DNA of 64,000 bases from Pseudovirgaria hyperparasitica (GCA_010093815.1 ML996569.1), one strand, 5' to 3'; shown: positions 15,151-48,726, counted from the stretch's first letter. Numbers and translations are program-made. Notes: generated from the letters alone by a model not told the origin.

Positions 15151-16835
<1,685 letters not shown>

Positions 16836-17487: not shown

Positions 17488-17587
17488 GCCGTACTATATA
17501 TATATAGAGTCTATAACTATATAATATAGTATATAAGAGTTAGTATATATAATATTTAGTATTTTTAACTTACTAACGCGTATATAT

Positions 17588-18688: not shown

Positions 18689-18949
18689 CTTACTTATTAC
18701 TAACTTACTAATAAGTAAGTCGCTTAGCTAGCTAGTAATAGTCTATATATATATCCGTTTTAGGTACTATTCATTAAGTATATAGCCTTAATATATAAAT
18801 ATATACTCCTAAATATACTCTAAGAAACACTATACCATCCCTATCTAAATACTAGTTATACTAGTTATAGTAAACGCCTAGAGCGAGGACGCTACCTTAC
18901 TTACCTTAAGTTACTCCTTATACTTATAAAGGTATAGATATATATCTAG

Positions 18950-22680: not shown

Positions 22681-23623
22681 GGCCAGGTGGCGTAGTGGTA
22701 GTATACTACGTTACTAGAAGCGTTTGTCATCCAACGTCGTGGGTTCGAATCCTACAACGGCCACCTTTTTATACACTAGTTTTCGCACGCTCTGTTAAAA
22801 AGTGTATAGGGCTAAGCGAGCACGTAACGTGAAGGTTACCGTTACATAACTACTTAGTCCTAAGCGACCATTAGGTAATATAAAAATGACTATACCGTTA
22901 TCACATAATAAGAATTACCTAATATAGCCACCTACTAAGCCACCTTAAGTGGTAGAGCGACGCCTAGAGCGGCTAGACCCATAACTAGCTTAGCTTAAAT
23001 CATAGAATTTTCACCATATACCGGGGCCTTGTCCACCCTAATCCGGCTTAGCTTGCGCTTACTCCGGCTCGGTAACCACGAAATAGACGGTAATACCTAA
23101 TTAAGTATCCCGCCTACCTATAGACGATTACATAGCCCCGAAGAATAATTTCCGAATTTGGCCTAGCTAGGGTTAGTGCTAAGGCATGGACCTATTAGAT
23201 ATACACCCCCTCCGGCATTAGTCATCTTAATTAATAACTACTATCTAGCGCAAAGCTATATTCCTATAGATAGGAAAAAAACACGGTAACATAGGAATAA
23301 AAGACTAGGCCTAGCCTAGCGACCTACCCAATCATAAGAAAGGTAATACCTACTATAGTTAGTTAGGGCGTTATTAAGAGCCGGTACTAATATAGTAATA
23401 AAAGCCTAATATAAGGATAAGAAGTAAGTTTATCACCTAATGGGATTCGAGGACTTAGACTAGGCTAGGTTAGATTAGTAATAGGGTCTAGTTAGGGAGC
23501 TAATCATAGGAGGTTTTCTTATATACATAGTAGCTAATACTAGAGGAGGCCTGAGCCTATGGAGCATATATATGGCTATATATATAGTTCTTCCTAGTTA
23601 AACACTAATATTATTATTATTAT
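22681..23623 (+). mobile_element. tRNA-headed SINE (~943 bp) inserted in the 3' LTR of Gypsy-A1
   Basis: A box TGGCGTAGTGG and B box GGTTCGAATCC in a cloverleaf-like head (22681-22763), (ATT)n tail, 13-bp TSD TATATAAAGGGAC (22668-22680 / 23624-23636). Confidence 0.88.
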
Positions 23624-24226
23624 TATATAAAGGGACGCCGATCTATCTAGCACGTAACTATTTACCGCCCTTTACGTCACCTCCTAACCCTATTAGCTAA
23701 GGTATATATAGATCAGGTCCTACCTAAGGCTAAGTCCTAATAATTATCCCTTCCCTCTAGGAAGCTACCCTTAGCGATCTAGATTATTATCTATCTCTAT
23801 ATCCCTATTCTAAGTCTCGTAAGACCTTAGTTATTCTCTATACTTCGTCTTAGATACTTACTAATATTTACTAATCTAAGATTTATATAAGCGTTTTCCT
23901 AATAAACTAGATTTTATCTATCTTAACTTCTTATATAGGTAAGATTACCTGATTAGGCCTAGCGTATCACGTAATATAATTAGGTAAGCCTAAGTACTAC
24001 CTATATTAAAATCTTTTCTTAGAAATATTCCTTTCTTTAAAAAACTTCTCAACTCTTTATAGAGTTTTTTAGATTATTAGATATATTACCCGATCCTTAT
24101 AGACATAGATTTATATAGATTTACTATAATTTAGTACGATTTACGTAATTTACTAATTTTCGTACTATCCTTAGCTAGTAATAATATAATTCGTAATAAT
24201 CCGTATAAATTAATAATAATTATAAT

Positions 24227-25208
24227 ATGGTTTCCTAAAATCTCGATACTCTAAAGTAATTAGTACGGAAATAGACGCCTTTAAATAATCCCTATCTTAT
24301 ATACGTTACCGATATGTCGAAAGCTATTAATCTACCCCGACCTAGGCTAGGCTCTAATAATCTAGCTATATATTATTATAGTTATCGCTTTCCGTTATAT
24401 ATTACTCACGGTAGTACTAAATCTATAATATATAGTACTTATATAACTAAGAAGCGTTATTACTTATAGGTATTTAAGTAAGTTTAAAGAACTTTACGTA
24501 GATTTACTTATATTAGTATAGATTACTACTAGGCCTCTAGTAACCCCTACTAATAAGGAGCGTAGTACTACTGATCGTAACGCCTTAGAGAAGGCTTTCT
24601 ACGAGCTATATATCTAAGATAAGGGTTACGCCTAGGAGTACGATTCTAATAAGATCCGTAAGGATTTATTAGAATCTACTATAGCTATTATTACCGCGAT
24701 TACTAGGTAATATCGTTTTTCTTAAATTATTATAGATTCTTACTAATATATATTAATCTCTATAATAGTACTAAAATCTCTACTACTTCGGACTTCTTTC
24801 TATATACCGGTAATATTAAAATTCCTAGAAAAGGTTCTAGTAAAAAGGCTAAGGTTCCTTCCTCGCGCGTGCTAAAGAGCTATAAATTTAGGGAAGATAG
24901 CTCTAATCTAGAAGTTTCTATACTAAAGGTATATAGTTCTATACCGATCGTTAAATCTTTTCGCTAATTTATATAATTCTTAGTATACCCGCGCCGGTCT
25001 ATCCCTCTCTATTCTAGGTCCCGCTACTCCATAGGTTTCTATAGAGGAGTTCATAGCTATAAGGCGCGCTATATAGAATTTATAGCGTCGGAACGAAAGG
25101 CTAGAGACTTATATTATAAAGCTCTATACTATACTAAATAAGAACTAGCGGAAGGAATTAGATATAACTATCGCGGTAATTAGTACTTCTACTCCTACTC
25201 TAACTTAA
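24227..25208 (+). pseudogene. Antisense accessory gene of Gypsy-A copy 1 (3 introns: 24470-24521, 24707-24768, 24929-24983); RIPed
   Basis: ATG at 24227. GT..AG introns restore one frame. Cys-rich exon 1 by de-RIP; coiled-coil last exon (EEFIAIRRAI*NL*RRNERLE). Confidence 0.7.
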
Positions 25209-28200
25209 TTAGTTTAGATCTATACTAATTAGTACTAATATATCTCTTTTATCTAGCGTTTTTAGTTTTTCGGTTTTAATTTTAAAGCGATCTTACTTCT
25301 TCTAGATAGATTAGTACGAGTTTATATAGATCTATATAGATCTTTATATTTTCTTTTAGCTTTCTTAATTTTATCTTTCTTTAATAATAACTTCTTTAAT
25401 CTCTTTAGTAATCTATACCGATCTATACCGATCGGCACCGATTTTCGATGTCTATTTCTCTTAGTGAATTATTTTTCTAAGTCTCTTTTTTAGTTAAATT
25501 TTTTAAAGTTCTAAGTTCGAACTTTCTAAGGAAGTTCCTTAATTTCTTAGAATATTTTAAAGATCTATATCTCTTTTACCTTCTTCCTTTTAGACGGCTA
25601 TTCTTAGCGCCGAACTATACTAAAAAACGTTAAATCGCCGTACTTTAGTATAATTCTCTATAATTCCGCGGCTTCCTTTACTAATCACTACTTATATACT
25701 AATATCGCTACTTTACTAATATTTATTATAGGTTTCTAAGTATCTTTATTAGAATTATATCCTTTCTAATAAATTTTATATAGCCATGTACTATCTTCGG
25801 CGTGTTACTAGCTAAGTATCTACTTAACTTTATAGATATCTATACCTTCTTACGTAACTACTTTATATAGTATCTATTCGGAATAATCCGGTAATAATAA
25901 GGTATAAAATAGCTCGAGAAGCGTAATATAGAATATATTATATATCTTTAACGTAGGAGGGAGTTATAACTCGTACGCCTAGTTATTAATTACACGAGTA
26001 ATCTTATATAGACCTATTATTATATAGTTAAGCTTCTTCTTTAGCCTAATACTATGAATATTCTTACTATTTAGTAAAACTTTATCCCTAATATTAAAGA
26101 TTATAGGTTTTCTACCCTTGTTATAGTGCGATTTACTATAATTTATAGTATCTTATAGTAACTTTATAACACTTCTTTACGTTTAGAATAGTTCTATAGT
26201 AATTTCTATTACTTTAATATTAGGTCATTCTACTTTAAACTAAGTCTCTAAGAACTATATATTATAGTTCTAACCGAAGTTTACTTTGAACGGACTCATG
26301 TAGGTTAATGTATATTAGCTGTTATTATACGCGAATTCCGTAATATAGACTAACCTTATCTAGTTATCCTACTTATAGTTATAATATACGCGTAAATACG
26401 CCTCGACTATCTAATTCTACCGCTCCATCTACCTATCTATTTAGAGATAGAACATAGTACTAAGTTTCCGCTTAATTCCTAGCATATAGTAGAAATCCTT
26501 CTAAAATTTAGACGTTATCTACAGACCTCTATCCGAAACTATACTATTTAGTATACTATAGAGCCGGACTACGTCACGGAGTAGTATATCTATAAGATCC
26601 AGTACTTAGATCGTCTTCCTTATAGGGATATAGTATAATATCTTTATAAATCTATCTAGAACTACGAGTAAACTATTATAAATATATCTAGAATACTTAC
26701 TTAGGGGTAGATCTATAATAAAATCTATCGATAATTCCTTCTATGCCTCCTTTAGCATAGGTAATAGCCTTAATTCGCTATATAGTAAGTGTCTATATAT
26801 TTTCGTATACTGGTAAACGTTATACGTTTTTACGTAGTCTTTTATATATTTATAAAGACCCGGCTAGTTATATATCCTTTAGATTAAATCGACTATCCTT
26901 ATAATACTAAAGTACCCTACTAACGCGTAATCATGCTATTCCCTTAAAATATTAATTCGTAAGCCGCCTTCTAGTATATAGAGTTGGCCTTAGAAGTAGA
27001 TCGCGTCTAATTATCGTTCCTACCTTAATAACTATAGCGGATCTATAGCGCTTCCTTTTATACTTATAACTTTCTTTACTAATACATTAGAATTCTAGGT
27101 AGATTTAATTAAGTCTTCGAGGGTTTTCTTAGTTTCTTAGACATTTATTTAGATTACTTAATACCCGCGCTAATTCCCGTAGAGAATCGCCGAAAGTGTC
27201 CTAGCTTCTAGTATTCTATTAGATAACTAGTCTTATAGTATCTAAAGTATAGTATAGTCTAACTTACACCGACTATCTACGTTATTCTATAACGATTTCT
27301 TATAATCTTTACGCCGCGATAGAGGATTAGCTTTATTCTCTCTTCTAGCTTTATATAAGATTTTAAAGTTAAATATTAATATCTACTTAGCCTAACGTAC
27401 TTATTAGCGATTAAGGACCTTAGTTAATATAAAGTAACGTAGATTTATATAATCTAATAATAATTTAATCTAATATACGGAGCCTTCTAAATAATATTAC
27501 TATTACTTAAAACTCTTAATAATTATAAGTAGTTCCTAGTTATACGTGTTATAACGCGTCTCTATATCCACTATTTTATAGAAAAAGAAAGCGACCGGGT
27601 ACTATTACACCTTATCTTTCATACCTATATACGGTTAACTAATAATTCTAGTAATTATAAATCCTAACGCGTTAGTTTTAACCCGAATATACTTCTTAGA
27701 ATTAAAATACCTAAGAATCGGCGTAGTTATAAAGTAATTCTTTAACGATCGGAACGTATCTCACGCTTCCGGCGTTAACTATATCTCGACCGACTTAGCT
27801 TTATACTATACTCGCCTACCTATAGGGATTTTACTACTATTCTCTATAAGTTTATTAAGCGGCGCCGTAATTCGTAAGAAGTCTATAATAAATTTATAAT
27901 AATAGTTCACGAAACCTATAAATATTCTAATTTAACGTATAGTAGTAGGTTCTAGCCATTCTATAATAGTCTTTATACGCTCCGGCTCTATTTTTAGGCC
28001 GCTATATATTATAATAAAGCCGAGAAACCCAACTTCTTATTAGTGAAACTTATATTTAGATAATTTTATATAGAGTTTATACTACCTTAGATAATTTAGT
28101 ACTAATTTTATATATTCTTTATAATCCTATATACTATCGGAGTAAATTAGTATATTATTAAGATAAACTACGTAAATCATATTAAGTAATCCTACGAGTA

Positions 28201-29409
28201 TAGTATTAATATATCCTTAAAACGCTTCTAGTATATTTATTAGCCCGAATAGTATAATAGTATACTTAAAATAACTATATCTAGTTTGAAATATAGTTTT
28301 CTACTTATCTCCGCGACGAATTTAAAGCCGGTAATATATATCTTGTAAATCTAGCTTCGTAAAGTACTTTACCTTTATTAATTAGTCTAAAGATTTACTA
28401 ACTAGCGGTAATAGGTAACGATTCTTCTTAGTTACTATATTTAGTACCTAATAGTCGACGTATAGACGTAAACTTCTATCTTTCTTCTTTATAAAGAGAA
28501 TAGATACGCCGGCCGATAACATACTATAACGTATCTAGTCTCTTTTAAGGTATTCTTTAATATATTTACGAAGAACTTTAAGTTCTAGTCTTAAAAGTAG
28601 ATAAAGTAGGCTATAAGGGACGTCTACTCTCTCTTCGAGCTTAATCTTTAGCTTATACGGCCTATAATTAGGGAGAAGTAATATATCTTCTACCGAAAAC
28701 ATATCTATATACTATGAATATACGTTAGATAGCGTGTCTTCGCCCCGATTATTACTATCATCCTTATCTTTATTAATAATTAATAAGGATATAAGATAGA
28801 TTAGCGATGATCGGGTCCGCACGGTAAGGTTCTATGCCTCCTTACTAATAGTTATAACTTACTAGTATAATTTACTACGGTATTATCGGAATATTAATAT
28901 CTTCTTCTAAAAATTAAGGATAGGGTTTAGGCGTCTAAGCTAAGGCATCCCTAGAATCATATTCTATTAGCTAATATTAGCTACGATAAATTTATTAGAT
29001 ATCTACTATTTTATTATCTTTAAGTCATGAACTTCGTAATTTATTATAGCTTTACCTAAAGTTCTAACTTTATATCTATTAACTATAATAGTTTAGCTAA
29101 CTTTACCGAGATCATACGATAATCTATACTCCTTTATAAGAATTAACGAAATATAGTTATCTTCTATACTAGTATCTACGAGGGCCTATATAGTTTTATT
29201 ACCATTTACTATAGGTAACGATACTTTTAGTAATATTAGGTCTTTACTCGCCGGAAGGCGCTATAGCTCCTCCTAAGTATATATAATTTAGCTAAGAACG
29301 CGGTTAGGTCTTATATACTAGCCTATTCTTTTTTCGGATTCTTATAGTTAGGCGAAATATATTCTATTTCTCTATACTTATAGTAACGAAGTGTGCTATA
29401 ATCCTACTA

Positions 29410-29703
29410 NNNNNNNNNNNNNNNNNNNNNNNNNNNNNNNNNNNNNNNNNNNNNNNNNNNNNNNNNNNNNNNNNNNNNNNNNNNNNNNNNNNNNNNNNNN
29501 NNNNNNNNNNNNNNNNNNNNNNNNNNNNNNNNNNNNNNNNNNNNNNNNNNNNNNNNNNNNNNNNNNNNNNNNNNNNNNNNNNNNNNNNNNNNNNNNNNNN
29601 NNNNNNNNNNNNNNNNNNNNNNNNNNNNNNNNNNNNNNNNNNNNNNNNNNNNNNNNNNNNNNNNNNNNNNNNNNNNNNNNNNNNNNNNNNNNNNNNNNNN
29701 NNN
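29410..29703. other. Assembly gap (N run) in the gag region of Gypsy-A1
   Basis: Run of N. Confidence 0.99.
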
Positions 29704-32700
29704 NTAATACTATTCCTAGTCTTTCGCGGATTAACGGAAGTAGTACTTCGCGAAACTAGAATATATAAATATTTTTCTATAGTGTAGGGATATTATCCTA
29801 TAGGTTTTAGAGGTATTATAGTAGTTAAGTAGGTGTCTAGTTCGGTCGTTATACCACGCTTCTTAACTTAGATAGTGCCTTTCTTTCACGTTCTCTATCC
29901 GTTCCGAGGGTATTTAGTATAAATATAGCTAAATATTCCTAGGTTATCGTAGATAGTAGCTATACTTCCTTCTATCTATTCTATTAATCGCGGGATTATA
30001 AGTCTAGGTATCGTTCTCCGAACGAAATATATTATACTTTAGTAGAAAAGAGTAGAGAGTTATTAAGGAAGTACTTTTCGTAGTCTCTCTTCTAGTCTTT
30101 CTACTTCTTTTAGTTCTTCCCTATAAATATAGTTAGGTCTTTAGATTTTAGTATACCTAGGGAAGGAGTAGAGTAAATCGGTAACGAAGCGGCCGGGTAT
30201 ACGGTAGATTATTATAACTCTAATGGTAGGTAAACTAATTCCGCCTAAATTAGTATAGGAAGTCGTCTACCTACTATCGTTTAGCGTAGTTCTTTAAGAG
30301 ACTCCTTAAGTTCTCGTCTCTTTACGAGGAGTTTCGCGCGTTCTACCTATTCTTTAAGGGTTTAAATCTCTCGAGCCTAATTCACGACGTATTCCTAAAG
30401 TTCGGCGATAGTTTATTATAATACCTTATATGGCTCCGCCACGACTCGTTATCCGGCTTTATATTATTAGAAGTTACTCGGTATATCTACTATTTCTTCA
30501 TCTAAAAGCTCCGTGATTTAGTCTAATATTTCTACTTCTCGGTTAGAAATAGCTAGAATTAATACTAATTATAGAGGATCCCTATTATTTAATATAGTGT
30601 TACTTATTATTAGGACGGGAACTATAATAGATCTATATAGACCATTCTAATCCATGTAGCCACGTAGTGGCCAGAGCTAGGTTAAGTTAGCTAAGTTAAG
30701 CGAGGTTACTATATAAGTAGACCGTATAAACCGATTTCTACTCGTTAGGAATTAACCTCGTATAAGAGTAAGATTACTCTATAAATATATTCCTATATCT
30801 CTCTATAAACTATTAGACTACTATCCCACGTCTTTACTCTTTATATTTTAATTCCTCTCTATATAGCACGACGGTAGCTTATAGAGATAGCTCCTACTAC
30901 ACGCTATAATACCCGTGGCACTACCTTACACGAGAGACTCTCTCTAAATCTAAATAAAGAGAATAGTCTCCCTACAACCACCTCCACCGATAAGTATACC
31001 CTATAGACTATTATACTAATAACTAGTACGGTATTCCGTATAACCATAGAAGATTACCTAGATAATAAGGAAGGAGTCTATTATACTCCATCGCGGTCTA
31101 GTTTATACTATACTAGACCTATCCTTACTATAAGACTAGACCCTATTAATATTAATGAATTAATTTATTAGAACCGACTAACGTTAACCACGCCTTACAA
31201 TAATATATATACTAAGCTATATATAGAGAGGTAGCGTTAGGCTTAGCTCGAGTAGTAACTTCGCGAACTCGACGAAGTGCGAGAACGAACCGCTAGACTC
31301 AAAGCCGCACTACGCGCTTTAGTGCTAGTAATAACTAATCTATACTAATATAGACTAACTTAAGCCGAAATAGTCTAACTAAGTCTATTACTATCCTAGT
31401 TACCTTAGCCTAAGAAACTACCTTACTTCGACGGTAAAACCAGGAGGAGCTTTTATAAATAGGCTTACTAGTATAGCTAATTCTTCTATCTATTCACGAA
31501 CGATAGTAATAAGATTAGGTTCGCATAGAACTACCTAGACCTAACGCCATCTAAACGTTAGATAGTATATTAAATTAAATACTCTAAGGATGCGCATAAC
31601 TAGGACACGTTTACTAAATTCCTTCTTTAATACTTCGGCGATAGAGCCGAGCGACGCGAATAGGCTTAGAGCCATATCTTTAAGACTTAATAGCGAGAGA
31701 GATAATCCCCGTTATAACTCCTTAAATACCTCTAACCTCTTTAGAGAGAAGCTAAGGAAGATCGTATGGTTTAATAATACGACGACTTTAAAAGGTCCCT
31801 TAACCCAAGCGTAAAGGAACGTATTAACCTTATAATATCTATCCCTACCGACCTTTAGATACTCGCGAATCTCGTAGAACGACATTAGTATATAATAAAT
31901 AACTAACGTCGTATAGGCGCACGACTATCCCTATTAATCTAATCTAATATAAAATTATCTAAAGAGGACCGGTTTAGTAATAGATCGCGCGGAATACCTT
32001 ATAGGCGCTACTACTCTACGAACTCGAGAAGACAAGGCCCGTACTACGGATCTTTCTACTAGTTAATATATTAAGACGCGAGAAACGACTTATATAAACG
32101 ACCTAAAGTTACCTACTATACCTATAGTAGGATAGGCCATATAGTACCCGAGTGCCGCTTAGGGAAACCACTAAATACTAATATAGATACTAAGTTAGTT
32201 ATATACTATAAGTACTAGTAGCTAGGATATATCGCGTCTAACTACCCGGTATATAATATAAAAAACTAACTATCTATAAGAAACCCTCGCGACTTATAGA
32301 CGTAACTAAAATAGAGAGATAACTAGCCAACTAGTACATTAAACTATAGGCTAGGCCTATTAAGGTCCCTCGTGGATAATATTAGACTATAATACTTAAT
32401 AGCGGTTTAGCTACTAACGTTATATTAACTTAACGAGCACGAGAACTTAACGTCGATATTTAAGTACTAATAGGTACTACCTTCTATAGTATCGATAGTC
32501 CTATTAAATCATAGGGTATCTATACTATTAAATATAGTATCTAGGATAGCGGGGGGAAGTGGAAACCCTACTACTTAACCTTCATCGTAGTAGATAGTCC
32601 CTTTAATATAATCCTCGGTATACCGTAGCTCGAAAAATATAACCCGAAACTAGACTTTATCTAGAAAACAGCTAGCTGGCGTATATACCTACTATAATGG

Positions 32701-33762
32701 AATCTAGTATAGCTAGTCGACGATGAATAATTCTAGAAGAACTACGAAAAGGCAATCTCCGCTATCTACGTCCTCTTACTTACTTAAAATAGAGAGCTTA
32801 GTATTAAAGTAGACGAAAACCTACTACATGTTAGGACTTAGTCTTAGGTAGGACCCGACCTACACGTACCTTAGCTAATAGGGATAGGAGGTGACGTGAA
32901 GGGCGGTAAACAGTCACGTGCTAGATAGATCGGCGTCCCTTTATGTATATACTCTTAGATTCCTACCGAAAGGGTTCGGTAGTAATTCGTTCTATAATAG
33001 AATACACCCTATTATTCTATCTAACTATACTACTATCTAATAACTCTATTCTTATATTCGAATTACTTCCCATATAGTACTATAGTTAAGATAGTCTAAC
33101 TAGAACTAAGAAGGTCGACACGATCTACTATAGGGATAAGTAATACTATATTAAATAATAGGGATCCTCTATAATCGGCATTAATCCCGGCCGTTTCTAA
33201 CCGAGAAGTAGAAATATTAGACTAAATCACGGAGCTTTTAGACGAAGAAATAGTAGATACGCCGAGTAACTTCTAATAATATAAAGCCGGATAACGAGTC
33301 GTGGCGGAGCCATATAAGGTATTATAATAAACCATCGCCGAACTTTAGAAATACGTCGTAAATTAGGCTCGAGAGATTTAAACCCTTAAAGAATAGATAG
33401 AACGCGCGAAACTCCTCGTAAAGAGACGAGAACTTAAGGAGTCTCTTAAAGAACTACGCCGAACGATAGTAGATGGACGACTTCCTATACTAATTTAGGC
33501 GGAATTAGTTTACCTACTATTAGAGTTATAATAATCTACCGTATACCCGGCCGCTTCGTTACCGATTTACCCTACTCCTTCCCTAGGTATACCAAAACCT
33601 AAAGACCCGACTATATTTATAGAGAAGAACTAAAAGGAGTAGAAAGACTAGAAGAGAGACTACGAAAAGTACTTCCTTAATAACTCTCTACTCTTTTCTA
33701 CTAAAGTATAACGCATTTCGTTCGGAGAACGATACCTAGACTTATAATCCCGCGATTAATAG

Positions 33763-34132
33763 NNNNNNNNNNNNNNNNNNNNNNNNNNNNNNNNNNNNNN
33801 NNNNNNNNNNNNNNNNNNNNNNNNNNNNNNNNNNNNNNNNNNNNNNNNNNNNNNNNNNNNNNNNNNNNNNNNNNNNNNNNNNNNNNNNNNNNNNNNNNNN
33901 NNNNNNNNNNNNNNNNNNNNNNNNNNNNNNNNNNNNNNNNNNNNNNNNNNNNNNNNNNNNNNNNNNNNNNNNNNNNNNNNNNNNNNNNNNNNNNNNNNNN
34001 NNNNNNNNNNNNNNNNNNNNNNNNNNNNNNNNNNNNNNNNNNNNNNNNNNNNNNNNNNNNNNNNNNNNNNNNNNNNNNNNNNNNNNNNNNNNNNNNNNNN
34101 NNNNNNNNNNNNNNNNNNNNNNNNNNNNNNNN
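33763..34132. other. Assembly gap (N run) in the gag region of Gypsy-A2
   Basis: Run of N. Confidence 0.99.
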
Positions 34133-37100
34133 AGAAACGCGTTAAGAGGATACCGAAATAATTAAGGCGGTACTTCTTAACGCGGAAAAGCATAAGGCAT
34201 AGGCTTAAATATAACGCCTATCGTAAAATAGTAGGATTATAGCACACTTCGTTACTATAAGTATAGAGAAATAGAATATATTTCGCCTAACTATAAGAAT
34301 CCGAAAAAAGAATAGGCTAGTATATAAGACCTAACCGCGTTCTTAGCTAAATTATATATACTTAGGAGGAGCTATAGCGCCTTCCGGCGAGTAAAGACCT
34401 AATATTACTAAAAGTATCGTTACCTATAGTAAATGGTAATAAAACTATATAGGCCCTCGTGGACACTAGTATAGAAGATAACTATATTTTATTAATTCTT
34501 ATAAAGAAGTATAGATTATTATACGATCTTAGTAAAGTTAGCCGAACTATCGTAGTTAATAGATATAAAGTTAGAACTTTAGGTAAAGCTATAATGAATT
34601 ACGAAGTTCATAACTCGAAGATAATAAAATAGTAGATGTCTAATAAATTTATCGTGGCTAATATTAGCTAATAGAATATGATTCTAGGGATGCCTTAGCT
34701 TAGATGCCTAAACCCTATCCTTGATTTTTAGAAGGAGATATTAACGTTCCGATAATACCGTGGTAAATTATACTAGTAAGTTATAACTATTAGTAAGGAG
34801 GCATAGAACCTCGCCGTGCGGACCCGATCGTCGCTAATCTATCTTACGTCCTTATTAATTATTAATAAAGATAAGGATAATAGTAATAATCAGGGCGAAG
34901 ACACGCTACCCGACGTATATTCATAGTATATAGATGTGTTTTCGGTAGGAGATGCGTTACTTCTCCCTAATCACGGGCCGTATAAGCTAAAGATTAAGCT
35001 TAAAGAGGGAGTAGATATCCCTTATAGCCTACTTTACCTACTTTTAAGACTAGAACTCGAAGTTCTTTATAAATATATTAAAGAATACCTCGAAAGAGGC
35101 TAGATACGTTATAGTATATTATTAGCTGGCGTACCTATTCTCTTCGTAAAGAAGAAAGACGGAAGTTTATATCTATGCATCGACTATCGGGCACTAAATA
35201 TAGTAACTAAGAAGAATCGTCACCTATTACCGCTAGTTAGTAAATCTTTAGACTAATTAATAAAGGTAAAGTACTTTATAAAGCTAGATTTATAAGATAT
35301 ATATTACTAGCTTCGAATTCGTCACGGAGATAAGTGGAAAACTGCATTTCGGACTAGATATAGTTATTTTAAGTATACTATTATGCTATTCGGGCTAATA
35401 AATACGCTAGGAGCGTTTTAAGGATATATTAATACTATACTCGTAGGATTACTTAACGTGATTTACGTAGTTTATCTCGATAATATACTAATTTACTCCG
35501 ATAGCATGTAGGATTATAAAGAACACGTGAAATCGGTACTAAATTATCTAAGGTAGTATAAACTCTATGTAAAATTATCTAAATGCGAGTTTTACTAATA
35601 AGAAGTTGGGTTTCTCGGCTTTATTATAATATATAGCGGCCTAAAAATAGAGCCGGAGCGTATAAAGACCATCATAGAATGGCTAGAACCTACTACTATA
35701 CGTTAAATTAGAATATTTATAGGTTTCGTGAACTATTATTATAAATTTATTATAGGCTTCTTATAAATTACGGCGCCGCTTAATAAACTCATAGAGAATA
35801 GCGGTAAAATCCCTATAGATGGGCGAGTATAGCGTAAAGCTAAGTCGGTCGAGATATAGTTAACGCCGGAAGCGCGAGATACGTTCCGATCGTTAAAGAA
35901 TTACTTTATAACTACGCCGATTCTTAGGTATTTCGATTCTAAGAAGTATATTCGGGTCGAAACTAACGCGTTAGAATTTATAATTACTAGAATTATTAGT
36001 TAACCGTATAAAGATACGAAAGATAAGGTATAATAGCACCCGGTCGCCTTCTTTTCCCGTAAAATGGTGGATATAGAGACGCGTTATAACACGCACGACT
36101 AGGAACTACTTATAATCGTTAAGAGTTTTAAGTCATAGCGATATTATTTAGAAGGCTCCGTATATTAGATCGAATTATTATTAGATTACGTAAATCTACG
36201 TTACTTTATATTAACTAAGGTCCTTAATCACCGATAAGTACGTTAGGCTAAGTGGATATTAATATTTAACTTTAAAATCTTATATAAAGCTAGAAGAGAG
36301 AATAAAGCTAATCCTCTATCGCGGCGTAAAGATTATAAGAAATCGTCATAGAATGACGTAGATAGTCGGTGTAATTCAGACTATGCTATACTTTAGATAC
36401 TATAAGACTAGTTATCTAATAGAATGCTAGAAGCCAGGACACTTTCGGCGATTCTCCGCGGGAATTAGAGCGGGTATTAAGTAATCTAAATAAACGTCTA
36501 AGAAACTAAGAAAACCCTTAAAGACTTAATTAAATCTACCTAGAATTCCGATATATTAGTAAAGAAAGTCATAAGTATAAAAGGAAGCGCTATAGATCCG
36601 CCATAGTTATTAAGGTAGAAACGACGATCGGACGCGATCTACTTCTAAGGCCGACTCTACGTGCCTAAAGGCGGCTTATAAATCGATATTTTAAGGGAAT
36701 AGTATGATTACGCGTTAGTAGGGTACTTCGGCGTTATAAGGACGGTTAATTTAATCCGAAGGACGTACGACTAGCCGGGTCTTTATAAATATATAAAAGA
36801 CTACGTAAAAACGTATAACGTTTACCAGTATACGAAAGTATATAGACACTTACTATATGGCGAATTAAGGCTATTACCTATACTAAAGGAGGCATGGAAG
36901 GAATTATTAATGGATTTCATTATAGATCTACCCCTAAGTAAGTATTCTAGGCATATTTATAATAGTTTACTTATAGTTCTAGATAGATTTACGAAGATAT
37001 TATACTACATCCCTATAAGGAAGATAATCTAAGCACCGGATCTTATAGATATACTACTCCGTGACGTAGTCCGGCTCTATAGTATACTAAACGGTATAGT

Positions 37101-38428
37101 TTCGGATAGAGGTCCGTAGATAACGTCTAAATTTTAGAAGGATTTCTACTATACGCTAGGAATTAAGCGGAAACTTAGTACTACGTTCTATCTATAAATA
37201 GATAGATAGACAGAGCGGTAGAATTAGATAGTCGAGGCGTATTTACGCGTATATTATAACTATAAGTAGGATAACTAGGTAAGGTTAGTCTATGTCGCGG
37301 AATTCGCGTATAATAACAGCCGATATACGTTAACCTACGTAAGTCCGTTCAAAGTAAACTTCGGTTAGAACCATAATACGTAGTTCTTAGGGACTTAGTT
37401 TAAAGTAGAACGACCTAACGTTAAAGTAATAGAAATTACTATAGAACTATTCTAAACGTAAAGAAGCGTTATAAAGTTACTATAAGATACTACGAATTAT
37501 AGTAAATCGCACTATAATAAGGGTAGAAAACCCATGATCTTTAATGTTAGGGATAAAGTTTTACTAAATAGTAAGAATATTTATAGTATTAGGCTAAAGA
37601 AGAAGCTTAACTATACGATAATAGGTCTATATAAGATTACTCGTGTAATTAATGACTAGGCGTACGAGTTATAACTCCCTCCTATATTAAAGATATATAA
37701 TATGTTCTATATCACGCTTCTCGAGCTATTTCATGCCTTATTATTACCGGATCGTTCTAAATAGATGCTATATAAAGTAGTTACGTAAGAAGGTATAGAT
37801 ATCTATAAAGTTAAGTAGATACTTAGCTAGTAACGCGCCGAAGATGGCACGTAGCTATATAAAATTCGTTAGAAAGGATATAATCCTAACGAAGATACTT
37901 AGGAACCTATAATAAACATTAGTAAAGTAGCGATATTAGTATATAAGTAGTAATTAGCAAAGGAAGCCGCGGAATCGTAGAGAATTATACTAAAGTACGG
38001 CGATTCGACGTTTTTTAGTATAGTTTAGCGCTAAGAACGGCCGCCTAAAAGGAAGAAGGTAAAAGAGATATAGATCTTTAAAACATTCTAAGGAATTAAG
38101 GAACTTCCTTAGAAAGTTTAAACTTAGAACTTCAAAAATTTAACTAAAAAAGAGACTTAGAAAAATGATTTACTAAGAGAAATGGACATTAAAAGTCGGT
38201 GCCGATTAGTATAGATTGGTATAGATTACTAAAGAGATTAAAGAAGTTATTATTAAAGAAAGATAAAATTAAGAAAGCTAAAAGAAAATATAAAGATCTA
38301 TATAGATCTATATAAACTCGTACTAATCTATCTAGAAGAAGTAAGATCGCTTTAAAATTAAAACCGAAAAACCAAAAACGCTAGATAAAAGAGATATATT
38401 AGTACCGATCGGTATAGATCTAAACTAA

Positions 38429-39410
38429 TTAAGTCGGAGTAGGAGTAGAAGTACTAATTACCGCGATAGTTATATCTAATTCCTTCCGCTGGTTCTTATT
38501 TAGTATAGTATAGAGCTTTATAATATAAGTCTCTAGCCTTTCGTTCCGACGCTATAAATTCTATATAGCGCGCCTTATAGCTATGAACTCCTCTATAGAA
38601 ACCTATAGAGCAGCAGGACCCAGGATAGAGAGGGACGGACCGGCGCGGGCACGCTAAGAATTATATAAATCAGCGAAAAGATTTAACGATCGGTATAGAA
38701 CCACATACCTTTAGTATAGAAACTTCTAGATTAGAGCTATCTTCCCTAAATTTACGGCTCTTTAGCACGCGTAAGGAAGGAACCTTAGCCTTTTTACTAG
38801 AACCCTTTCTAGGAATTCTAATATTACTAGTATATAGAAAGAAGTCCGAAGTAGTAGAGATTTTAGCACTATTATAGAGATTAATATATATTAGTAAGAA
38901 TCTATAATGATTTAAGAAAAACGATATTACCTAGTAATCGCGGTAATAATAGCTATAGTAGATTCTAATAAATCCTTACAGATCTTATTAGAATCGTACT
39001 CCTAGGCGTAACCCTTACCTTAGGTATATAGCTCATAAAAAGCCTTCTCTAAGGCATTACGATCAGTAGTACTACGCTCCTTATCAGTAGGGGTTACTAG
39101 AGGCCTAGTAGTAATCTATACTAATATAAGTAAATCTACGTAAAGTTCTTCGAACTTACTTAAATACCTATAAGTAATAACGCTTCTTAGTTATGCAAGT
39201 ACCGTATATTATAGATTTAGTACCGCCGTGAGTAATATACGATAGAAAGCGATAACTATAATAATATATAGCTAGATTATTAGAGCCCGGCCTAGGTCGG
39301 GGTAGATTAATGGCTTTCGACATATTAGTAATATATACGAGATAGGGATTATTCGAAGGCGCCTATTTCCGCGCTAATTACTTTAGAGCGTCGAGATTTC
39401 GGGAAACTAT
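38429..39410 (-). pseudogene. Antisense accessory gene of Gypsy-A copy 2 (same gene as 24227-25208)
   Basis: Same 982-nt span. Retains an unmutated GTATGT..GCTGAT..TAG intron and a TGC codon in Y(C)GTCITKKRY-Y(C)L*(Q). Confidence 0.72.
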
Positions 39411-42400
39411 ATTAAGATTATTATTAATTTATACGGATTATTACGAATTATATTATTACTAGCTAAGGACGGCACGAAAATTAGTAAATTGCGTAAATCA
39501 TACTAAATTATAGTAAATCTATATAAATCTATATCTATAAGAATCGGGTGATATACCTAATAATCTAAAAAACTCTATAAAGAGTTGAGAAGTTTTTTAA
39601 AGAAAGGAATATTTCTAAGAAAAGATTTTAATATAGATAGTACCCGGGCTTACCTAATTACATTACGTGATACGCTAGGCCTAATTAGGTAATCTTATCT
39701 ATATAAGAAGTTAAGATAGATAAAATTTAGTTTATTAGGAAAACGCTTATATAAATCTTAGATCGGCGAATATCGGTAAGTATCTAAGATAAAGCATAGA
39801 GAACGACTAAGGTCTTATAAGACTTAGGATAGGGATATAGAGATAGATAATAATCTAGGTTGCTAAGGGCAGCTTCCTAGAGAGAAGGGATAATTATTAG
39901 GACTTAGCCTTAGGTAGGACCCGACCTACACGTACCTTAGCTAATAGGGATAGGAGGTAACGTGAAGGGCGGTAAATAGTTACATACTAGATAGATCGGC
40001 GTCCCTTTATATATATACTCTCGGATTCCTACTAAAAGGGTTCGGTAGTAATTCATTCTATGATAGAATACACCCCATTGTTCTATCTAACTACACTACT
40101 ATCTAATAACCCTATTCTTACACTACATTAGTATAAAATATACTAATATATCGCGTTAGTAATCGACTCGTCCGAATTACCTTAATACTAACCTACCGAC
40201 CTTACTATTAACCTCGAAGACGGTTAATAACCCCTATATGGACCCATCTACCCTCTATTAGAACCCGAGCTATAGGTCCTCCGAGAATATATCGAAAAGA
40301 ACCTTACGCGAGAATAGATTAGACCTAGTATATCTCTAGCCGGAGCTCTAATCCTCTTTATAAAGAAGAAGGATAGGAGTCTCTATCTATATATTAACTA
40401 CCGTAGCCTAAATAATATCACGCGAAAGAATTATTACCTACTACCTCTTATCTCTAAGTCTATTAATAGACTAGGGCGCGCGAAGATCTTTACTAAGCTT
40501 AATCTACGCGACGCCTACTACCGCCTATATATTAAGAAGGGCGATAAGTAGAAAACGGCGTTTAGGACCCGTTATAGATACTTCGAGTATATAGTAGTCC
40601 CTTTTAGACTAACTAACGCGCTAGGAACCTTCTAAGCGTATATTAATAACGCGCTAGTAGGCCTACTCGATACGACGTGTATCATATACCTCGATAACAT
40701 CCTTATCTTCTCTAATAACGAAGAAGAACACATCTAGCACGTACGCGTAGTCCTAGATAGGCTAGAAAAACATAAGCTATATATTAAGCTATCTAAATAC
40801 GAGTTCCACTAGGACTATATTAACTTCCTTAGCTTCGTTATTACTAATTAAGGTATAACTATAGAAAGGGATAGGGTCGCTACTATCGTGGACTAGCCTA
40901 AACTAAAATCGGTTTAAGATATACATATCTTTATCGGATTTACTAATTACTACTAAAAATTCGTTAAGTATTTCTCCCGGCTAGTAGTACCGCTTAACGC
41001 GTGTACTACTACTATAGATTCGTCTATTACGGTCCGTGGTGGATAGAAATAGTATAATATTAAATCGTAGCCTATAGAATTATCGGAAGACGAAAGGGCC
41101 TCCTTCGAGAAAATCAAAGAGGCATTTATAACTACCCTATTACTAGTATACTTCGACCTAACTAAACCTATCCGTGTCGAAACTAACACGTTAGGATTTA
41201 TAATCTTAGGTATTCTCTTCTAGCCTAGACTAACTAAGTCTAAAAAGGTCTAATAGTATCTAGTTATATTCTTCTTACGTAAAATAGTTAATATTAAGAC
41301 TAGATATACTATCTATAACCAAGAGCTACTAGTAATAGTAGAGTCGTTTAAATAGTAGCGATATTATCTTAAAGGTACTATATATAACGTCGAGTTACTA
41401 ACTAATTACTATAACTTAAAGGGGTTTATAAGCACGACGGTTTTAAACCGTCGATAGATCTAATAGACTAAGTAGCTTACGAACTTTCACTTTATAATCT
41501 ACTATTAACCTAGAAGTATAAACCTAGCTAATAGAATATTAAGAAGACCTAACTATAAAGAAGGCGCCTAGGATTATAGTAGCTATAGAGTCCTAGAGTA
41601 GCTATAGGCCTAACTCTTAAGGACGAGGTTGGATTTTAAGTTATTAGGCGATTAGCGAGATACTAACGTTAATACTAGTAATTAAATCTCTAAGACCGAA
41701 GCCGGTAACTAAAGACGTAGTACTAAAGTCCCTAGTAGGCCGTTTATTAGCGCTATCGGGAAGGGCGATAATACCTAGCGTGAATATCTAATTAACCTTA
41801 CCTAGTTAATCGTGGATCTATAGAAGATAGACCTAATAGTTTTAAAGTTACGTAAAATATAGTAAGATAGGTTATTATAGACTAAAGTAGACTATAAGTA
41901 GACCTTTATGGACGGCTTACTTTACTATAATAGAAAGTACTATATACTAATAGATAACGCGCAATTTAACGTAGTTAGCTGATACTATAATACTAACCTA
42001 GTAGAATACTTTAGGTATATACGTACCCTAAGCTTAATTCATTAGTACTATTTTTAGAAAGATATACCTAAGTACGTCGAAGAATAGATAGCTACTTATC
42101 CGATTTATCAAAGAACGAAGGCCCCTAGGCATAAGCCATATAGGAATTTACAGCCTCTTTCAGCCCCCCTCTTTATATAGGAAGACGTTACTATAGATTT
42201 TATAACTAACTTACCTCTAAGTAAGATACTTAGAATAAGTTATAATTCTATTCTTATTATCGTAGATAGACTTATAAAGATATCTAGGTATATCCCGGTA
42301 TAGAAGACGATTACATCTAAAGAACTAGCGTAGGTATTCTAGAACAAGATTATTAAGGTCTATAGTATACTAAAAAGGATCGTTACGGACCGAGGAAGTA

Positions 42401-43959
42401 CCTTCACGTCTAAATTCTAGACGTTATTCTACGAAATAGTAAGTATAAATAGAAATATATCTATAGTATTTTATCCTTAGACGGATGGCTAGATAGAGCA
42501 ATAGAACTAGACGCTTAAGGCCTACCTACGTACATTCTATAATTTCGAGTAGGATAACTAGGCCTCCCTACTAAGTATAGTAGAGTTCGTATATAATAAT
42601 AGTCGTTATAGTACGATAGATATTATACCTTTCTAGGCGAACCTCGGACGTAGTCTAAGAATAGGTTTTAAGTCTTAGACGGTCTAATTTAATCGAATAA
42701 TAGACGTGAACGTCCACGCTTAGGAATTAGCGATTAAAATCTTCGAAACCGCACGTAACTATTACGCTATAATCCAATAAGTAAATAACTCATATATAAA
42801 GTACTATAATAGGTTAGCCAAGGATTAGACGTATAAGGAGGGCGATAAGGTCCTTCTTAATATCCGTAACATACGAACGTCGTAAGTAAATAAGAAGCTC
42901 GATTATAAAATAGCTAGTCCCTTCCGAATTAAACGTCGTATCGGTATAAGAGTCTACGAGCTCGACTTAGGAAGCGATATAAGAATCTATAATATATTCC
43001 ACGTCTTACTACTCGAAAGATTTCGACCTAACGTGTATGGCCGCACGAATATATAGTTATACTCTATTATACCCTAAGATAGACTAGACGTGTTCGAAGT
43101 AGACCATATTATTAAACATAGGATTAATAAAGATAGTATTTAGAAATATAGAATCCGTTAGAAGGACTACACTAAGGATAAGGACACCTAGGAACTAGTA
43201 GTATATATCTTAAGTTCTATAATAGCTGCGTATAAGTAAAAGATATAGAATAGTATATTATTAATATAAGTATAGCGACGTCGCGGTCGTCGTAAAAAGA
43301 AGAAGGATACCATAGAGAATAAAGTACTAAACTAGGAAATCTAGACGCGCACTAGGAAAACTCTATATAGCAGCCCTATAATTTAAGCGTCGTATGGTTA
43401 CTAGACGCGAAGAAAGTGTAAATAACCATTTTAGAAACGCGACGCGATATACCATAATAGAATAATATAGAAGAGTCTAGAATAGACTAATATAGACTAT
43501 TATACACGAGAAAAACATAGGACCAAGAACCTAAAAAAAGGTACCCTACTATAGAATTAAACTCTTAACACGAAATATAAAAGGTTAGAGTACCCGAACC
43601 AATAACTACTAGGCTACTAGTTCGGGTACTCTAATAGAATTTATAGAGATAAACTAATTTATATATAGTGTCTATACTTAGGTAACTTAAGGAAAATTAG
43701 AATATAGAAACTGATAGTTATAAGCTAAGCGAGCGTATATATAATATCGTTAAGTTAAGAATTAAATTACTAGAAACTAGCCGACGGGTATCTAAACGGT
43801 CTAAAAAGGACTAAAATGGATAAAAGCTAGGTAAATAGAGCCGGCGCGCACCACCTATAGTAGATCTAGAATATATAGAGCTAGGCATAGAGCTAATATA
43901 TAGAGCTAGACCATAGAGCTAATATATAGAGCTAAACTCATAGAGCTAGAACTATAGAG

Positions 43960-45272
43960 CTACTCCTCTATCTTATTATCTATTCTAACCTCTAGTATAG
44001 TTCTCTCTAACTATATGATATAGCGGTAGAGGACGACGACCTTAGCCTCTAGAGTAATAACCCGATCCGTTAGAGTCTATAGAGAAGAGCCTTAAGCGCT
44101 AGAGCGTAGCGACTAGGTCTAAAGTTAGCTAATATAATCTAGAATAATCTAGAAGGGAATATATATCCTCTTATAAGGTAACTTAGAGGGAGAAATAGTA
44201 GACCTCTTATAAGATCTATTAGTAGCGCGAGACGGACGGGGGGGGATAGAGCGAATCCTCTCTACGGCCTCTATAGCTAGGATAGACTCCCTAGAATAGA
44301 TAGTCTAGGCGCTAGGGATCTCGCGGCGGCTAGAAAAATTAATAGGTGTTAAAAATAATTAACGTGCTTATAACTTATACTTTAATAACCTCTAGGAAGA
44401 GCTTATAGCGCTCCCTAAACTCCCTCTATATAGTAGATAGGCAGCTATAAGGACCCCCGAGGGTCTCACGGACACGAAGATCATTATAGATATCTTATAT
44501 ATATATAGGAACCTAAGAATGTATTAGCGCGGACTACTTTAGATTATACTAGATTAAGATAGCCCATTATACTTATTTATAGATAAGTCTTACTAGTTAC
44601 GGTATAGTAGTAGTAGTAGGTAGATAGAGTAAAGATAGGGTATATAGGCCCGTCGCGGTTAGTAGAGTAGTAGCTAATACTAGAGTTAGAGTAAAAGAGA
44701 TATTTAGAGCCGGCCGTATAGCTCTTAATATACTTATAGTATATTAAACCGTAGTTCGCTGTTTTCCTATAGTATAAACCGCGACTACGTTTAGTATTCT
44801 TGGCGACCTAGACCTTATTATTAGTAGACTAGGGTTTAGAGCGAATATTAAGGTTCTAAAAGGACCTAGAGTAACTAAATTAGTCTATATTAGACCAGAA
44901 GGAAGAGCGGCGAGGCGGCGGTATAGGTAAGCGCGAGGGCTCGCGATTATCGTCTATAACGAGATCTTCTTTATCCTCTAGAGGAGGTAGAGTAGATAGC
45001 GTACGCTTTAGAGCGAGAGGAGAATCTATAACCACTTTATCTATAAGTTTAGTACTAGAATTATCTAGATTAGAGTGACTAGTAGCTATATTAGTAGTAG
45101 AGGCAGTAGTAGTAGTAGCCCTAGCTACTCTCTTCTCTAACTTAGAGCACGCCTTCGTGCTACCGTAATAGGTAGACTTCTTAGCCGGCGTGGCCGGGGA
45201 GAAGGCGATATCTTTAGAGCGAGTCTTACGAGAGGAGGAGGTAGGCTTAGAGATAGGACTAGTATTAGATAT
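43960..45272 (-). pseudogene. Antisense accessory gene of Gypsy-B (3 putative introns: 44513-44576, 44330-44380, ~44115-44162); RIPed
   Basis: Long S/P/T-rich exon 1 ending in Y(C)xxY(C)TVTSKTY(C)L*(Q). Branch points GCTAAT/GCTAAC before AG. Last exon LTDRVITLEAKVVVLYRYII*LE (coiled coil). Confidence 0.68.
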
Positions 45273-46740
45273 CTATATATATATATTAGCTAGAGATCTA
45301 AGGAAGGAATATTTATCTACCCTTAACGGTAATTAACGAAGCTAAATTAGTAACCGTAATAACGCGAATGGGTTATATAGGACCGGTTCTAATAAGAATA
45401 GACTACTATAGACCCTTCTAAACCTAAACTAGGAAAGATAGTATATAAATTAACGACTTACCTTAAGAGCGAGGTAGATATACTAGAGAATAAAATTAAA
45501 GGCGAGCGAAGCTAAATATATACTTAACTAAAGTAGCGATTATATATCCTAGGTAGTAGCCACGAAGTAAGGGATAAGCGCGTATATAAACTAGTAAAAG
45601 TAAACTAGAATCTCGAGTTTACCTATATTAAGGATAGTTATAATATTATAGAAACTTAGTTACGGATATATAGATACACGATAGATTATAGAGACTTAGA
45701 ATTATATATACTTAAGTACTTCGGGGCGAAGTATAAAAAGAAGAAGGATATTATTAGGACGGGAACTATAATAGACCTATATAGACTATTCTAATCTATG
45801 TAGCCACGTAGTGGCTAGAGCTAGGTTAAGTTAGCTAAGTTAAGCGAGGTTACTATATAAGTAGACCGTATAAACCAATTCCTACTCGTTAGGAATTAAC
45901 CTCGTATAAGAGTAAGATTACTCTATAAATACATTCCTATGTCTCTCTATAAACTATTAGACTACTATCCCACGTCTTTACTCTTTATACTTATCCCTAT
46001 AGTAGATTATGTCGACCTTCTTGGTTCTAGTTAGACTATCTTAACTATAGTACTATATAGGGAGTAATTCGAATATAAGAATAGGGTTATTAGATAGTAG
46101 TATAGTTAGATAGAATAATAGGGTATATTCTATTATAGAATAAATTACTACTAAATTCTTTTAGTAGAAATCTAAGAGTATATATATAAAGGGACGCCGA
46201 TCTATCTAGCACGTAACTATTTACTACCCTTTACGTTACCTTCTAACCCTGTTAGCTAAGGTACGTGTAGGTCGGGTCCTACCTAAGGCTAAGTCCTAAT
46301 AGATAGACTATATTATCTTATTAAGAGCCGCGTTATTATCCTATAGATCCTTCTTCTTCTTCTTCTTAACTATATCTCTATAAACTAAAGTAGAGTTATT
46401 AGTATTATTAGATATATTATCTAGTAAGGCTAGAGGATCGCTTAATAAGGGTACGTTAGAGGGCGCTAGTAGTATATTTTTATACCTCGCCGCTATCTTT
46501 ATAGCCCTTAATATCTTATCTATACTATACTAGAGCGCCTTTAACGTAGATATATATAGCTATAGCCTAGGAGGTAGTAGTAGAGGTTCTATCGAGTTAT
46601 CCTATCTGAATTAAATACCTTTATACTACTTAGGAGGTATAATAGATAGCGTAAAATAGTTAAAAAAATACTAATATATAGCTAATATCATATAATACTA
46701 ATATATAATAGGTATTTTAATAGGTATACGAGTATTCGTT

Positions 46741-46840
46741 GACGATGCTATAAAATATTAATTATATATAAAAACGCGTGTTGGTGGCATAGACGTGCAT
46801 CGGGCGCCAAGCTTTCCCATGTAACTATGGACAAACGGAT
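46741..46840 (-). repeat. Right terminal inverted repeat (100 bp)
   Basis: Reverse complement of 17388-17487. Confidence 0.95.
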
Positions 46841-48423: not shown

Positions 48424-48726
48424 GTCTGCGGTCGGTCGATGTCGTGATCGGAAGGTCGCGTTGGTTGGAACGTCGTAATGGGATTCTTTGATGAGGTCGT
48501 CGATTTGCGTCTGACTTCTGGGACGTCGTGATTGGCCAAAGTCCGAATGGTGCCGAGCTCGTGCATCACGTGATCAGCCAAACCTTCTCCTTGTCGAACC
48601 AAGTGTAAGTGTCAACATCGTATTCACCATCCAGACTTGCAACCATCTTCGCTCTGATGCAGCATTGAATATGATATTTCATCGCCAAAGTCCTCACTTC
48701 ATCGCGAGCCAGCCTGCAGGAAGGCT

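Follow-up and report, generated by a model that had tools for sequence, protein, structure and literature searches.

Moderate evidence for RIP-destroyed antisense genes between pol and the 3' LTR in two chromovirus families of Pseudovirgaria hyperparasitica

Introduction

Antisense accessory genes of long terminal repeat (LTR) retrotransposons are poorly understood. Among fungi, the sole case named in the literature that we searched is brtn, an antisense gene that Boty-like elements carry in Botrytis cinerea and in Sclerotinia sclerotiorum (Zhao et al. 2011, as relayed in PMC7264820, PMC8365987, and PMC4227169), and no further fungal antisense open reading frame (ORF) was found there. Here, we analyze a 64,000-nucleotide stretch of the Pseudovirgaria hyperparasitica genome (GCA_010093815.1 ML996569.1; hereafter the window), which contains two families of chromoviruses, A and B, the former as two copies (A1 and A2). 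An original prediction, made from this DNA alone, proposed that both families carry an antisense gene between pol and the 3' LTR and knew of no description of such a gene in fungal chromoviruses; on the latter point it is corrected by the published brtn of Boty-like elements (as described in PMC7264820 and PMC8365987). We find moderate evidence that the spacers between pol and the 3' LTR (hereafter also called tails) of both families, now heavily altered by repeat-induced point mutation (RIP), once held an antisense gene of ~1.3 kb.

Antisense genes are also known from plant elements and from vertebrate retroviruses. Among the plant elements, Grande, RIRE2, and Retand belong to lineages that we take to be non-chromoviral (Tat/Retand). 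On the retroviral side, HBZ is a bZIP protein, and its mRNA is spliced. HBZ of HTLV-1 and APH-2 of HTLV-2 are the antisense proteins of deltaretroviruses named in the account of PMC11963269. Plant antisense ORFs of the class called aORF-3R have been reported from maize Grande, rice RIRE2, Silene and other Retand elements (TRP28, PF04195), and Phaseolus PvRetro13, and in these accounts they are present in most copies of a family (PMC7264820, PMC11963269). According to the same sources, the Grande protein is nuclear and TRP28 of Retand is predicted to bind DNA (PMC7264820, PMC11963269).

Results

Codon usage in the spacers

We scored coding potential with a codon model trained on 3,865 host-gene codons of the window, with CpA and TpG changed to TpA in both the training genes and the test sequence. 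Significance was judged from dinucleotide shuffles, 200 for maximal segments and 60 for paths in which frame switches were allowed at a penalty. As a control, the true pol frame was chosen in 18 of 20 scoring intervals of A2 and in 14 of 20 of B, where five of the six remaining intervals went to the codon-aligned mirror frame. In the tails, an antisense frame scored best in all eight intervals of A2 (38300-39350) and in seven of nine of B (43800-45000).

In the A2 tail, the maximal segment with the highest score is an antisense frame of 439 codons (coordinates of this and other features are given in Table 1). Its score of 16.3 was reached by 7 of 200 shuffles, and the same segment was recovered by the frame-switch path. 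It contains 24 stops (5.5 per 100 codons), a density like that of the pol frame, and needs no intron. A1 lies on the minus strand, so the plus strand of the window is antisense to it; there, the coding-like stretch scored 18.1, a value reached by 2 of 200 shuffles and, for the path, by 1 of 60. The best maximal segment of B, also antisense, lies at 44784-45293 and scored 14.2 (1 of 200 shuffles). When frame switches were allowed, the antisense path of B scored 15.9, which none of the 60 shuffles reached, compared to 8.1 and 35 of 60 for its sense strand. The best segments on the sense strand of the tails scored 7.3-8.4, values reached by 42-82% of shuffles and therefore not significant. The codon-aligned sense frame in the A2 tail scored only 7.2, and because this is far lower than the antisense score, the antisense signal of A2 is not the mirror of a sense ORF, in contrast to the antisense signal of the B pol control, which is such a mirror.

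Within the B path lies a stop-free ORF of 130 codons, with which exon 1 of the original prediction begins. Its codon score was 12.7, compared to -28.1 and -1.3 for the other antisense frames. TpA dinucleotides at 44700-45300 are distributed over the three codon phases as 46:7:18 (chi2 34, p 4e-8), in a phase that fits this ORF. The whole of B exon 1 holds 5 stops in 234 codons; for reference, pol frames carry about 6 per 100 codons, all frames together 9.5, and the sense frames in the tails 6-16. Two simpler markers of coding sequence were tried and set aside: plain stop density was not decisive, and TGA-free frames were dropped, as RIP has removed TGA everywhere.

Chromovirus identity and the extent of the spacers

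Families A and B are both chromoviruses, that is, Ty3/Gypsy elements with a chromo-integrase, since their pol translations, written with X in place of stops, gave Pfam matches to pol domains together with weak Chromo matches. In A2 (frame of 33145), the domains follow in the order RVT_1 (3.4e-21), RT_RNaseH_2 (6.5e-17), Integrase_H2C2 (2.5e-7), rve (0.0039), and SH3_Tf2-1 (3.7e-9); in B (frame of 40003), RVT_1 (1.1e-19), RT_RNaseH_2 (2.2e-11), and SH3_Tf2-1 (1.8e-11) were matched. The Chromo matches (E 3e-4 and 21 bits in A2, E 1e-3 and 19.4 bits in B) lie under the gathering score because of RIP. The two families are distinct, with pol amino-acid identity of 40% over 959 aligned residues and DNA that can be aligned only in five conserved segments of pol. 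Every copy in the window is dead.

The pol-3' LTR spacers are genuine parts of both elements. From chromodomain to polypurine tract, A2 measures 1.96 kb and B 2.54 kb, in agreement with the ~2-2.5 kb predicted originally, and the polypurine tract stands directly before each 3' LTR. Both copies of family A carry the spacer (23743-25659 in A1, 37976-39894 in A2); 1934 of 2084 aligned columns match between them, and 140 of their 144 substitutions are transitions, the pattern of RIP. The plus strand is purine-rich throughout the tails. In six related metagenomic elements in which both LTRs could be placed, the spacers are only ~90-830 nt; long spacers are therefore a feature of A and B, not of chromoviruses generally.

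Genomic contigs with at least 80% likeness to the window were collected from two DNA runs of one sample (X1 and X2). They yielded 29,833 (X1) and 9,961 (X2) pieces from differently mutated copies, which covered all 30 bins, the tails like the rest of the elements. Because thousands of contig pieces cover the whole stretch, families A and B are highly repeated in the genome (contig depth does not give copy number). At the tandem array of B, 38-80 nt are skipped by contigs from other copies. A separate deletion variant is also present among the contigs: family-B copies skip 312 nt at 44602-44915, with four other letters between, which removes the end of the 130-codon ORF. Two further runs (X3 and X4), with the same species label and from a different sample, gave almost no coverage of the tails. 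X3 contains a 2840-nt contig of depth ~2600 that carries a 130-nt LTR-A-like piece (39899-40122), and this LTR fragment may be part of an abundant molecule.

Introns and exon structure

An intron candidate of 55 nt in the A2 tail (GTATGT...GCTGAT...TTCTTAG) joins a stop-free ORF of 86 codons (38673-38930) to the frame reading RARAGPS. It lies exactly at the frame switch, its length is right modulo 3, and the segments on either side of it, each read in its own frame, score +5.2 and +6.3. In the A1 counterpart, the donor has been mutated to GTATAT. These splice signals make at least one intron credible on the antisense strand of family A. The strict donor, branch, and acceptor pattern occurs on the antisense strand once in the A2 tail, at this candidate, and not at all in those of A1 and B, compared to a background of 0.27-0.66 per kb per strand in the RIP-mutated block.

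The original prediction had given each gene three introns, and of these six only one meets the strict pattern. It had also placed a junction PK/RAR in A, which is present at the candidate with its residues reading LK/RAR, and a junction PRKR/T in B, which could not be located. The segments of its four-exon model for A score 1.5, 7.3, 5.2, and 6.3, together higher than the 12.3 of the single frame over the same span. The model alternates between two frames and has fewer stops, but it uses three extra degrees of freedom, and the penalized frame-switch path favors the single frame.

The cysteine motif and the likeness of A and B

Exon 1 of both genes was proposed to end in C-x2-C-x6-C, one half of a Zn(II)2Cys6 cluster. 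The peptide strings on which this proposal was based are present on the antisense strands of A2, A1, and B, with most of the supposed Cys being Tyr codons: an actual Cys codon occurs at one position, in A2 only (TGC; TAC in A1), and the others are Tyr codons in every copy examined. The degenerate pattern [YC]xx[YC]x6[YC]L[*Q] has 3 matches in the 57,998 six-frame positions of the RIP-mutated block, compared to 0.5 expected. These matches are the antisense strands of A1, A2, and B, from which the pattern was itself derived. No second CX2CX6-8C half was found within 12 residues after the proposed intron, and Pfam Zn_clus had no match at E<=5 in 9 antisense-frame translations, a result that is not decisive by itself, since the loss of Cys codons to RIP would weaken any true match. 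Nor does the codon model prefer the frame of the motif. It ties with the alternative in the exon-1 region of A (1.5 vs 0.1) and falls behind it in B (-2.3 vs +2.3 at 44571-44882), and the best codon paths of both families run in frames other than that of the motif.

Comparisons between the A and B tails with tblastn and blastn gave nothing. The best of 16 Smith-Waterman comparisons of candidate exons scored 53 (A2 39109-38795 vs B 45263-44955), which 4 of 2000 and 1 of 2000 shuffles reached. Nine of the 53 points come from an A2 Cys whose A1 codon is CGT (Arg), and this Cys is for that reason attributed to RIP. With the A1 reading or a C/G-restored one, the score is 44, reached by 17-19 of 1000 shuffles and by 69-73 of 1000 when the whole exon 1 is used. 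Since the score falls to 44 without the RIP-made Cys, homology between the genes of A and B is unproven, and the likeness claimed for them is not statistically robust across 16 comparisons. Zinc-cluster identity, three-intron architecture, and a common A-B origin are not supported by any of the tests made.

Results that weigh against an antisense gene

Several results count against antisense genes in the spacers. The host-trained codon statistic is weak and does not reach significance in gag-protease of B, which is known to code (9.7, 21 of 200 shuffles); local heterogeneity, like the (ACT)n and (TAC)n runs of B, is not modeled by dinucleotide shuffles; and A1 and A2, as copies, are not independent tests. 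A codon model trained on pol, which detects the pol of the other family but is biased toward pol-like composition, gave the stop-free ORF of B no support and favored sense frames in the B tail. Codon scores also do not distinguish between a single uninterrupted frame and the four-exon model in A.

Searches for homologous proteins were negative. Word-indexed searches found none among 958 candidates for B exon 1 (234 aa, range 181-578) and none among 24 for the 130-aa ORF (range 71-228), and phmmer with B exon 1 against 1.84 billion representative proteins returned 0 at E<=1e-3. Nine antisense frames of the three tails matched Pfam only at the level of noise (E 0.22 and 3.9), PDB sequences gave noise with a best E of 0.51, and the ESM Atlas held no usable match to the stop-free ORF of B. 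The long A frame was searched in Pfam and PDB.

We also examined related elements. For the pol of family A, 89 relatives were found, the closest at 37% identity, and PF00385 is present in 83 of them; 26 of the 89 were aligned and used to fetch 80 metagenomic chromovirus loci. Six-frame comparison of the A and B tails with these loci, raw and RIP-normalized, revealed no link, and the RIP-normalized version was dropped because it did not improve the pol matches either. Antisense ORFs are not in excess downstream of pol: 42 of the 80 loci extend for 1 kb or more beyond it, and in these the longest ORF is antisense in 21 and sense in 21, and ORFs of at least 150 aa number 18 antisense and 17 sense. 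The description of the proposed gene as ancient and retained is not supported, as no search gave a homologue and these 42 elements show no antisense excess.

Some unmutated metagenomic chromoviruses contain Ser-rich ORFs of 150-207 codons on the minus strand (L032:1377-1976, L033:9666-10265, L062:4328-4948, and L074:3547-4008). Antisense ORFs that recur next to pol (L032/L033/L041 and L062/L074/L079) were set aside, as they overlap chromodomain coding sequence and look like mirrors of Glu/Lys-rich sense sequence. A Pfam search with 13 pol-adjacent antisense ORFs of the metagenomic loci gave nothing relevant.

The nest of elements and its surroundings

The elements lie in an AT-rich block at ~17.4-46.8 kb with strong RIP (TpA/ApT 1.5-1.9; (CpA+TpG)/(ApC+GpT) 0.1-0.3), between gene-rich host flanks of ~50% G+C. 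Repeat analysis, inverted and direct, together with LTR ends and target duplications read off the sequence, resolved a nest of three RIP-mutated LTR retrotransposons, B in A1 and A2 in B, each with its 5-bp target duplication intact. Gypsy-B inserted 91 bp inside the 5' LTR of A1 and is itself interrupted by A2, whose insertion site is the protease region of B. The two family-A copies have opposite orientations. The LTR ends of A2 read TGTTAGG...CTTACA, and some TG/CA ends of the elements read TA after RIP.

Table 1. Positions of the elements and of the features of their spacers within the window
Feature	Position	Strand	Remarks
Gypsy-A copy 1 (A1)	22559-46301	-	Outermost element; target duplication GATAG at 22554-22558 and 46302-46306
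A1 3' LTR	22559-22681 and 23624-23742	-	Split
A1 internal part	23743-30607 and 45990-46075	-	5' LTR at ~46076-46301
Gypsy-B	30608-45989	+	LTRs 30608-30845 and 45752-45989 (238 bp); target duplication CTTAT
Gypsy-A copy 2 (A2)	32829-40122	+	LTRs 32829-33056 and 39895-40122 (228 bp); target duplication CTACA
A2 pol chromodomain	37804-37929	+	Pfam Chromo, under gathering score
B pol chromodomain	43093-43203	+	Pfam Chromo, under gathering score
A2 polypurine tract	39879-39893	+	AGAGAGAAGGGATAA, read at LTR junction
B polypurine tract	~45735-45748	+	AAAAAGAAGAAGGA, read at LTR junction
A2 tail, antisense coding-like stretch	38432-39748	-	Best maximal segment
A1 tail, antisense coding-like stretch	23889-25205	+
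B tail, antisense coding-like path	43963-45293	-	Three frames: 45293-44937, 44911-44348, 44346-43963
B stop-free ORF	44883-45272	-	Ser/Thr/Pro-rich, basic
B tandem array	43856-43962		13/26-nt unit; directly 3' of the antisense coding-like path
A2 intron candidate	38654-38708	-
Proposed cysteine motif, A2	39168-39206	-	YGTCITKKRYYL, then stop
Proposed cysteine motif, A1	24431-24469	+	YSTYITKKRYYL, then stop
Proposed cysteine motif, B	44577-44615	-	YYYYTVTSKTYL, then stop; outside the best-scoring segment of its frame

Further observations concern the elements and the block around them. The LTRs of A and B begin with the same nine bases, T(G/A)TTAGGAC (32829-32837, 30608-30616, 39895-39903, and 45752-45760), despite the 40% identity of their pol proteins. 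A 942-bp insertion (22682-23623), without significant coding signal, splits the 3' LTR of A1. Runs of N at 29410-29704 (295 nt) and 33763-34132 (370 nt) make the equivalent gag-proximal place unreadable in both family-A copies. An inverted repeat (17388-17566 and 46664-46840) bounds the whole 29-kb RIP-mutated block, with 98% complementarity over its outer 100 nt and ~84% over 186 nt, and the retrotransposon nest may lie inside an older element with terminal inverted repeats. Three coding-like, RIP-mutated stretches outside A and B, all on the minus strand, may be remains of this older host element: 21147-22496 scored 27.3, 18029-19021 scored 14.0, and 46311-46739 scored 13.8, values reached by 0, 1, and 0 of 200 shuffles, respectively. 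A Pfam scan over 17400-23650, which covers the first two of these, gave no match, and Rfam found no family in 17-48 kb. The host genes of the flanks (722-1843, 9348-10892, 15211-16515, 48658-49815, 56296-57828, and 63056-64000) encode ordinary products: a DEP/RGS protein, a sugar transporter (two exons), a pyridine nucleotide-disulphide oxidoreductase, a Ydc2-type mitochondrial resolvase, a protein kinase, and Pex19.

Discussion

We lean toward reading each spacer as the RIP-destroyed remains of one accessory gene encoded opposite gag-pol, of the aORF-3R class that also includes brtn and the genes of Grande, RIRE2, and Retand. The opposite-strand gene of the original prediction survives in this sense, as the best reading of the codon statistics in both families; all copies carry stops, and no homologue was found. 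Such a gene would be transcribed from its own promoter near the polypurine tract and 3' LTR, against the genomic RNA. Its introns would be antisense to the genomic RNA and hence would pass through reverse transcription unspliced. The product would be a basic, Ser/Thr-rich protein without a known domain, and by analogy with Grande and Retand it would probably be nuclear and act on the element's own expression.

The alternative that survives best is that the spacers are non-coding, a lengthy 3' untranslated or cis-acting region containing small tandem arrays, and that the antisense ORFs and the codon scores arose by chance from a composition skewed by RIP. We regard this as doubtful, though it would account for the failure of every homologue search and for the presence of small tandem repeats, and many long-tailed Gypsy elements have such a region. 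The signal in A is only moderate (7 and 2 of 200 shuffles, from non-independent copies), intron-like strings recur in the block at the background rate given above, and chance ORFs of similar length exist, such as an antisense ORF of 88 codons in the pol of B (40956-41219). On the other hand, chance would have to explain why both families independently score best on the antisense strand and neither on the sense strand, and why the tails outscore the gag of B, a region known to code. It would also have to produce 130 codons without a stop, with strong TpA periodicity, in B and, in A2, an intron candidate that falls precisely on a frame switch with a length that fits modulo 3.

A second alternative is that each family's ancestor independently acquired, in reverse orientation, a piece of a host gene or of some other mobile element, and that this DNA does not represent a functional accessory gene. 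Gene capture by LTR elements is described as a route to additional ORFs (PMC11963269), and independent capture would fit both the lack of detectable similarity between tails of elements whose pol genes align and the short spacers of the six related metagenomic elements. It is nevertheless improbable in our view, because no protein family of hosts or transposons is matched by the tails, even though pol, mutated by RIP to the same degree, reaches 1e-21 in Pfam. Moreover, contigs of very many copies cover the spacer, and coverage of this kind is taken in the same account as a sign of a family-wide antisense ORF rather than of a one-off transduction (PMC11963269).

Two more specific proposals go beyond the antisense gene that we favor. 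It is similarly improbable that the antisense genes of A and B are homologous, contain introns, and encode a Cys-rich, basic nuclear protein, forming a conserved lineage unrelated or only distantly related to brtn, which would regulate the element or counter silencing. We give still less credence to the full form of the original prediction, in which homologous three-intron genes encode an ancient nuclear DNA-binding protein with half a Zn(II)2Cys6 cluster in exon 1 and a coiled coil in the last exon. Both coding-like stretches are indeed ~1.3 kb long, the last intron of A is credible, a true TGC is kept in A2 at one motif position, and the degenerate motif is found more often than expected, each time on the antisense strand of A1, A2, or B. 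Yet the pattern comes from the same sequences that it matches, two of its three Cys positions hold Tyr codons in every copy examined, no second half-cluster or Zn_clus match accompanies them, and the codon model favors the motif frame in neither family. The splice signals of five of the six introns fall short of the strict pattern, tblastn and blastn found nothing in the tails, and the best A-B alignment loses its strength once the A2 Cys is discounted.

A third sense-strand ORF in the spacer, env-like or an extension of pol, is very unlikely: the pol-trained model favored sense frames in much of the B tail and the plus strand is purine-rich there, but the host-trained model gave the sense strand no significant score, its frames are dense in stops, and Pfam found nothing beyond SH3 and the chromodomain.

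If spacers A and B did hold antisense genes, they would add two more families to those described, and antisense genes whose introns persist through retrotransposition would be commoner among fungal chromoviruses than has been assumed. Such genes would then merit a search in active copies, where their function could be tested. The dead copies analyzed here have their value as a pointer to families A and B rather than as a functional system.

Comparison with known systems sets the proposed antisense genes at different distances from each. Fungal Zn(II)2Cys6 factors (Zn_clus, PF00172) resemble the sequences described here in having a basic stretch after a possible CX2CX6C, with the N-terminal region here being rich in Ser/Thr; unlike these sequences, which have one Cys codon in one copy, they require six Cys in the arrangement CX2CX6CX5-12CX2CX6-8C. 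HBZ and APH-2 are comparable as regulatory nuclear proteins whose genes lie on a retroelement's minus strand close to its 3' LTR, as outlined in PMC11963269. They differ in belonging to vertebrate retroviruses, and the A and B tails gave no Pfam match to bZIP or another domain. The plant aORF-3R genes share the position and orientation of the proposed genes and, in the accounts cited, tandem arrays in the same spacer (PMC7264820, PMC11963269). They differ in that the antisense frames of A and B match neither TRP28 (PF04195) nor any other Pfam family, and in that family A has an intron candidate, whereas the main text of PMC11963269 never uses the word "intron".

The spacers of A and B are long (2.0 and 2.5 kb) and all copies have been killed by RIP, which sets them apart from Boty with its brtn, to which they are likened by description. 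Boty is, like A and B, a Gypsy element of Pezizomycotina with a chromodomain integrase, and in the accounts cited above it carries an extra gene on the opposite strand between pol and the 3' LTR. The arrangement is thus already known from brtn and from the plant elements, and A and B are probably further examples of it, surviving as RIP wreckage.

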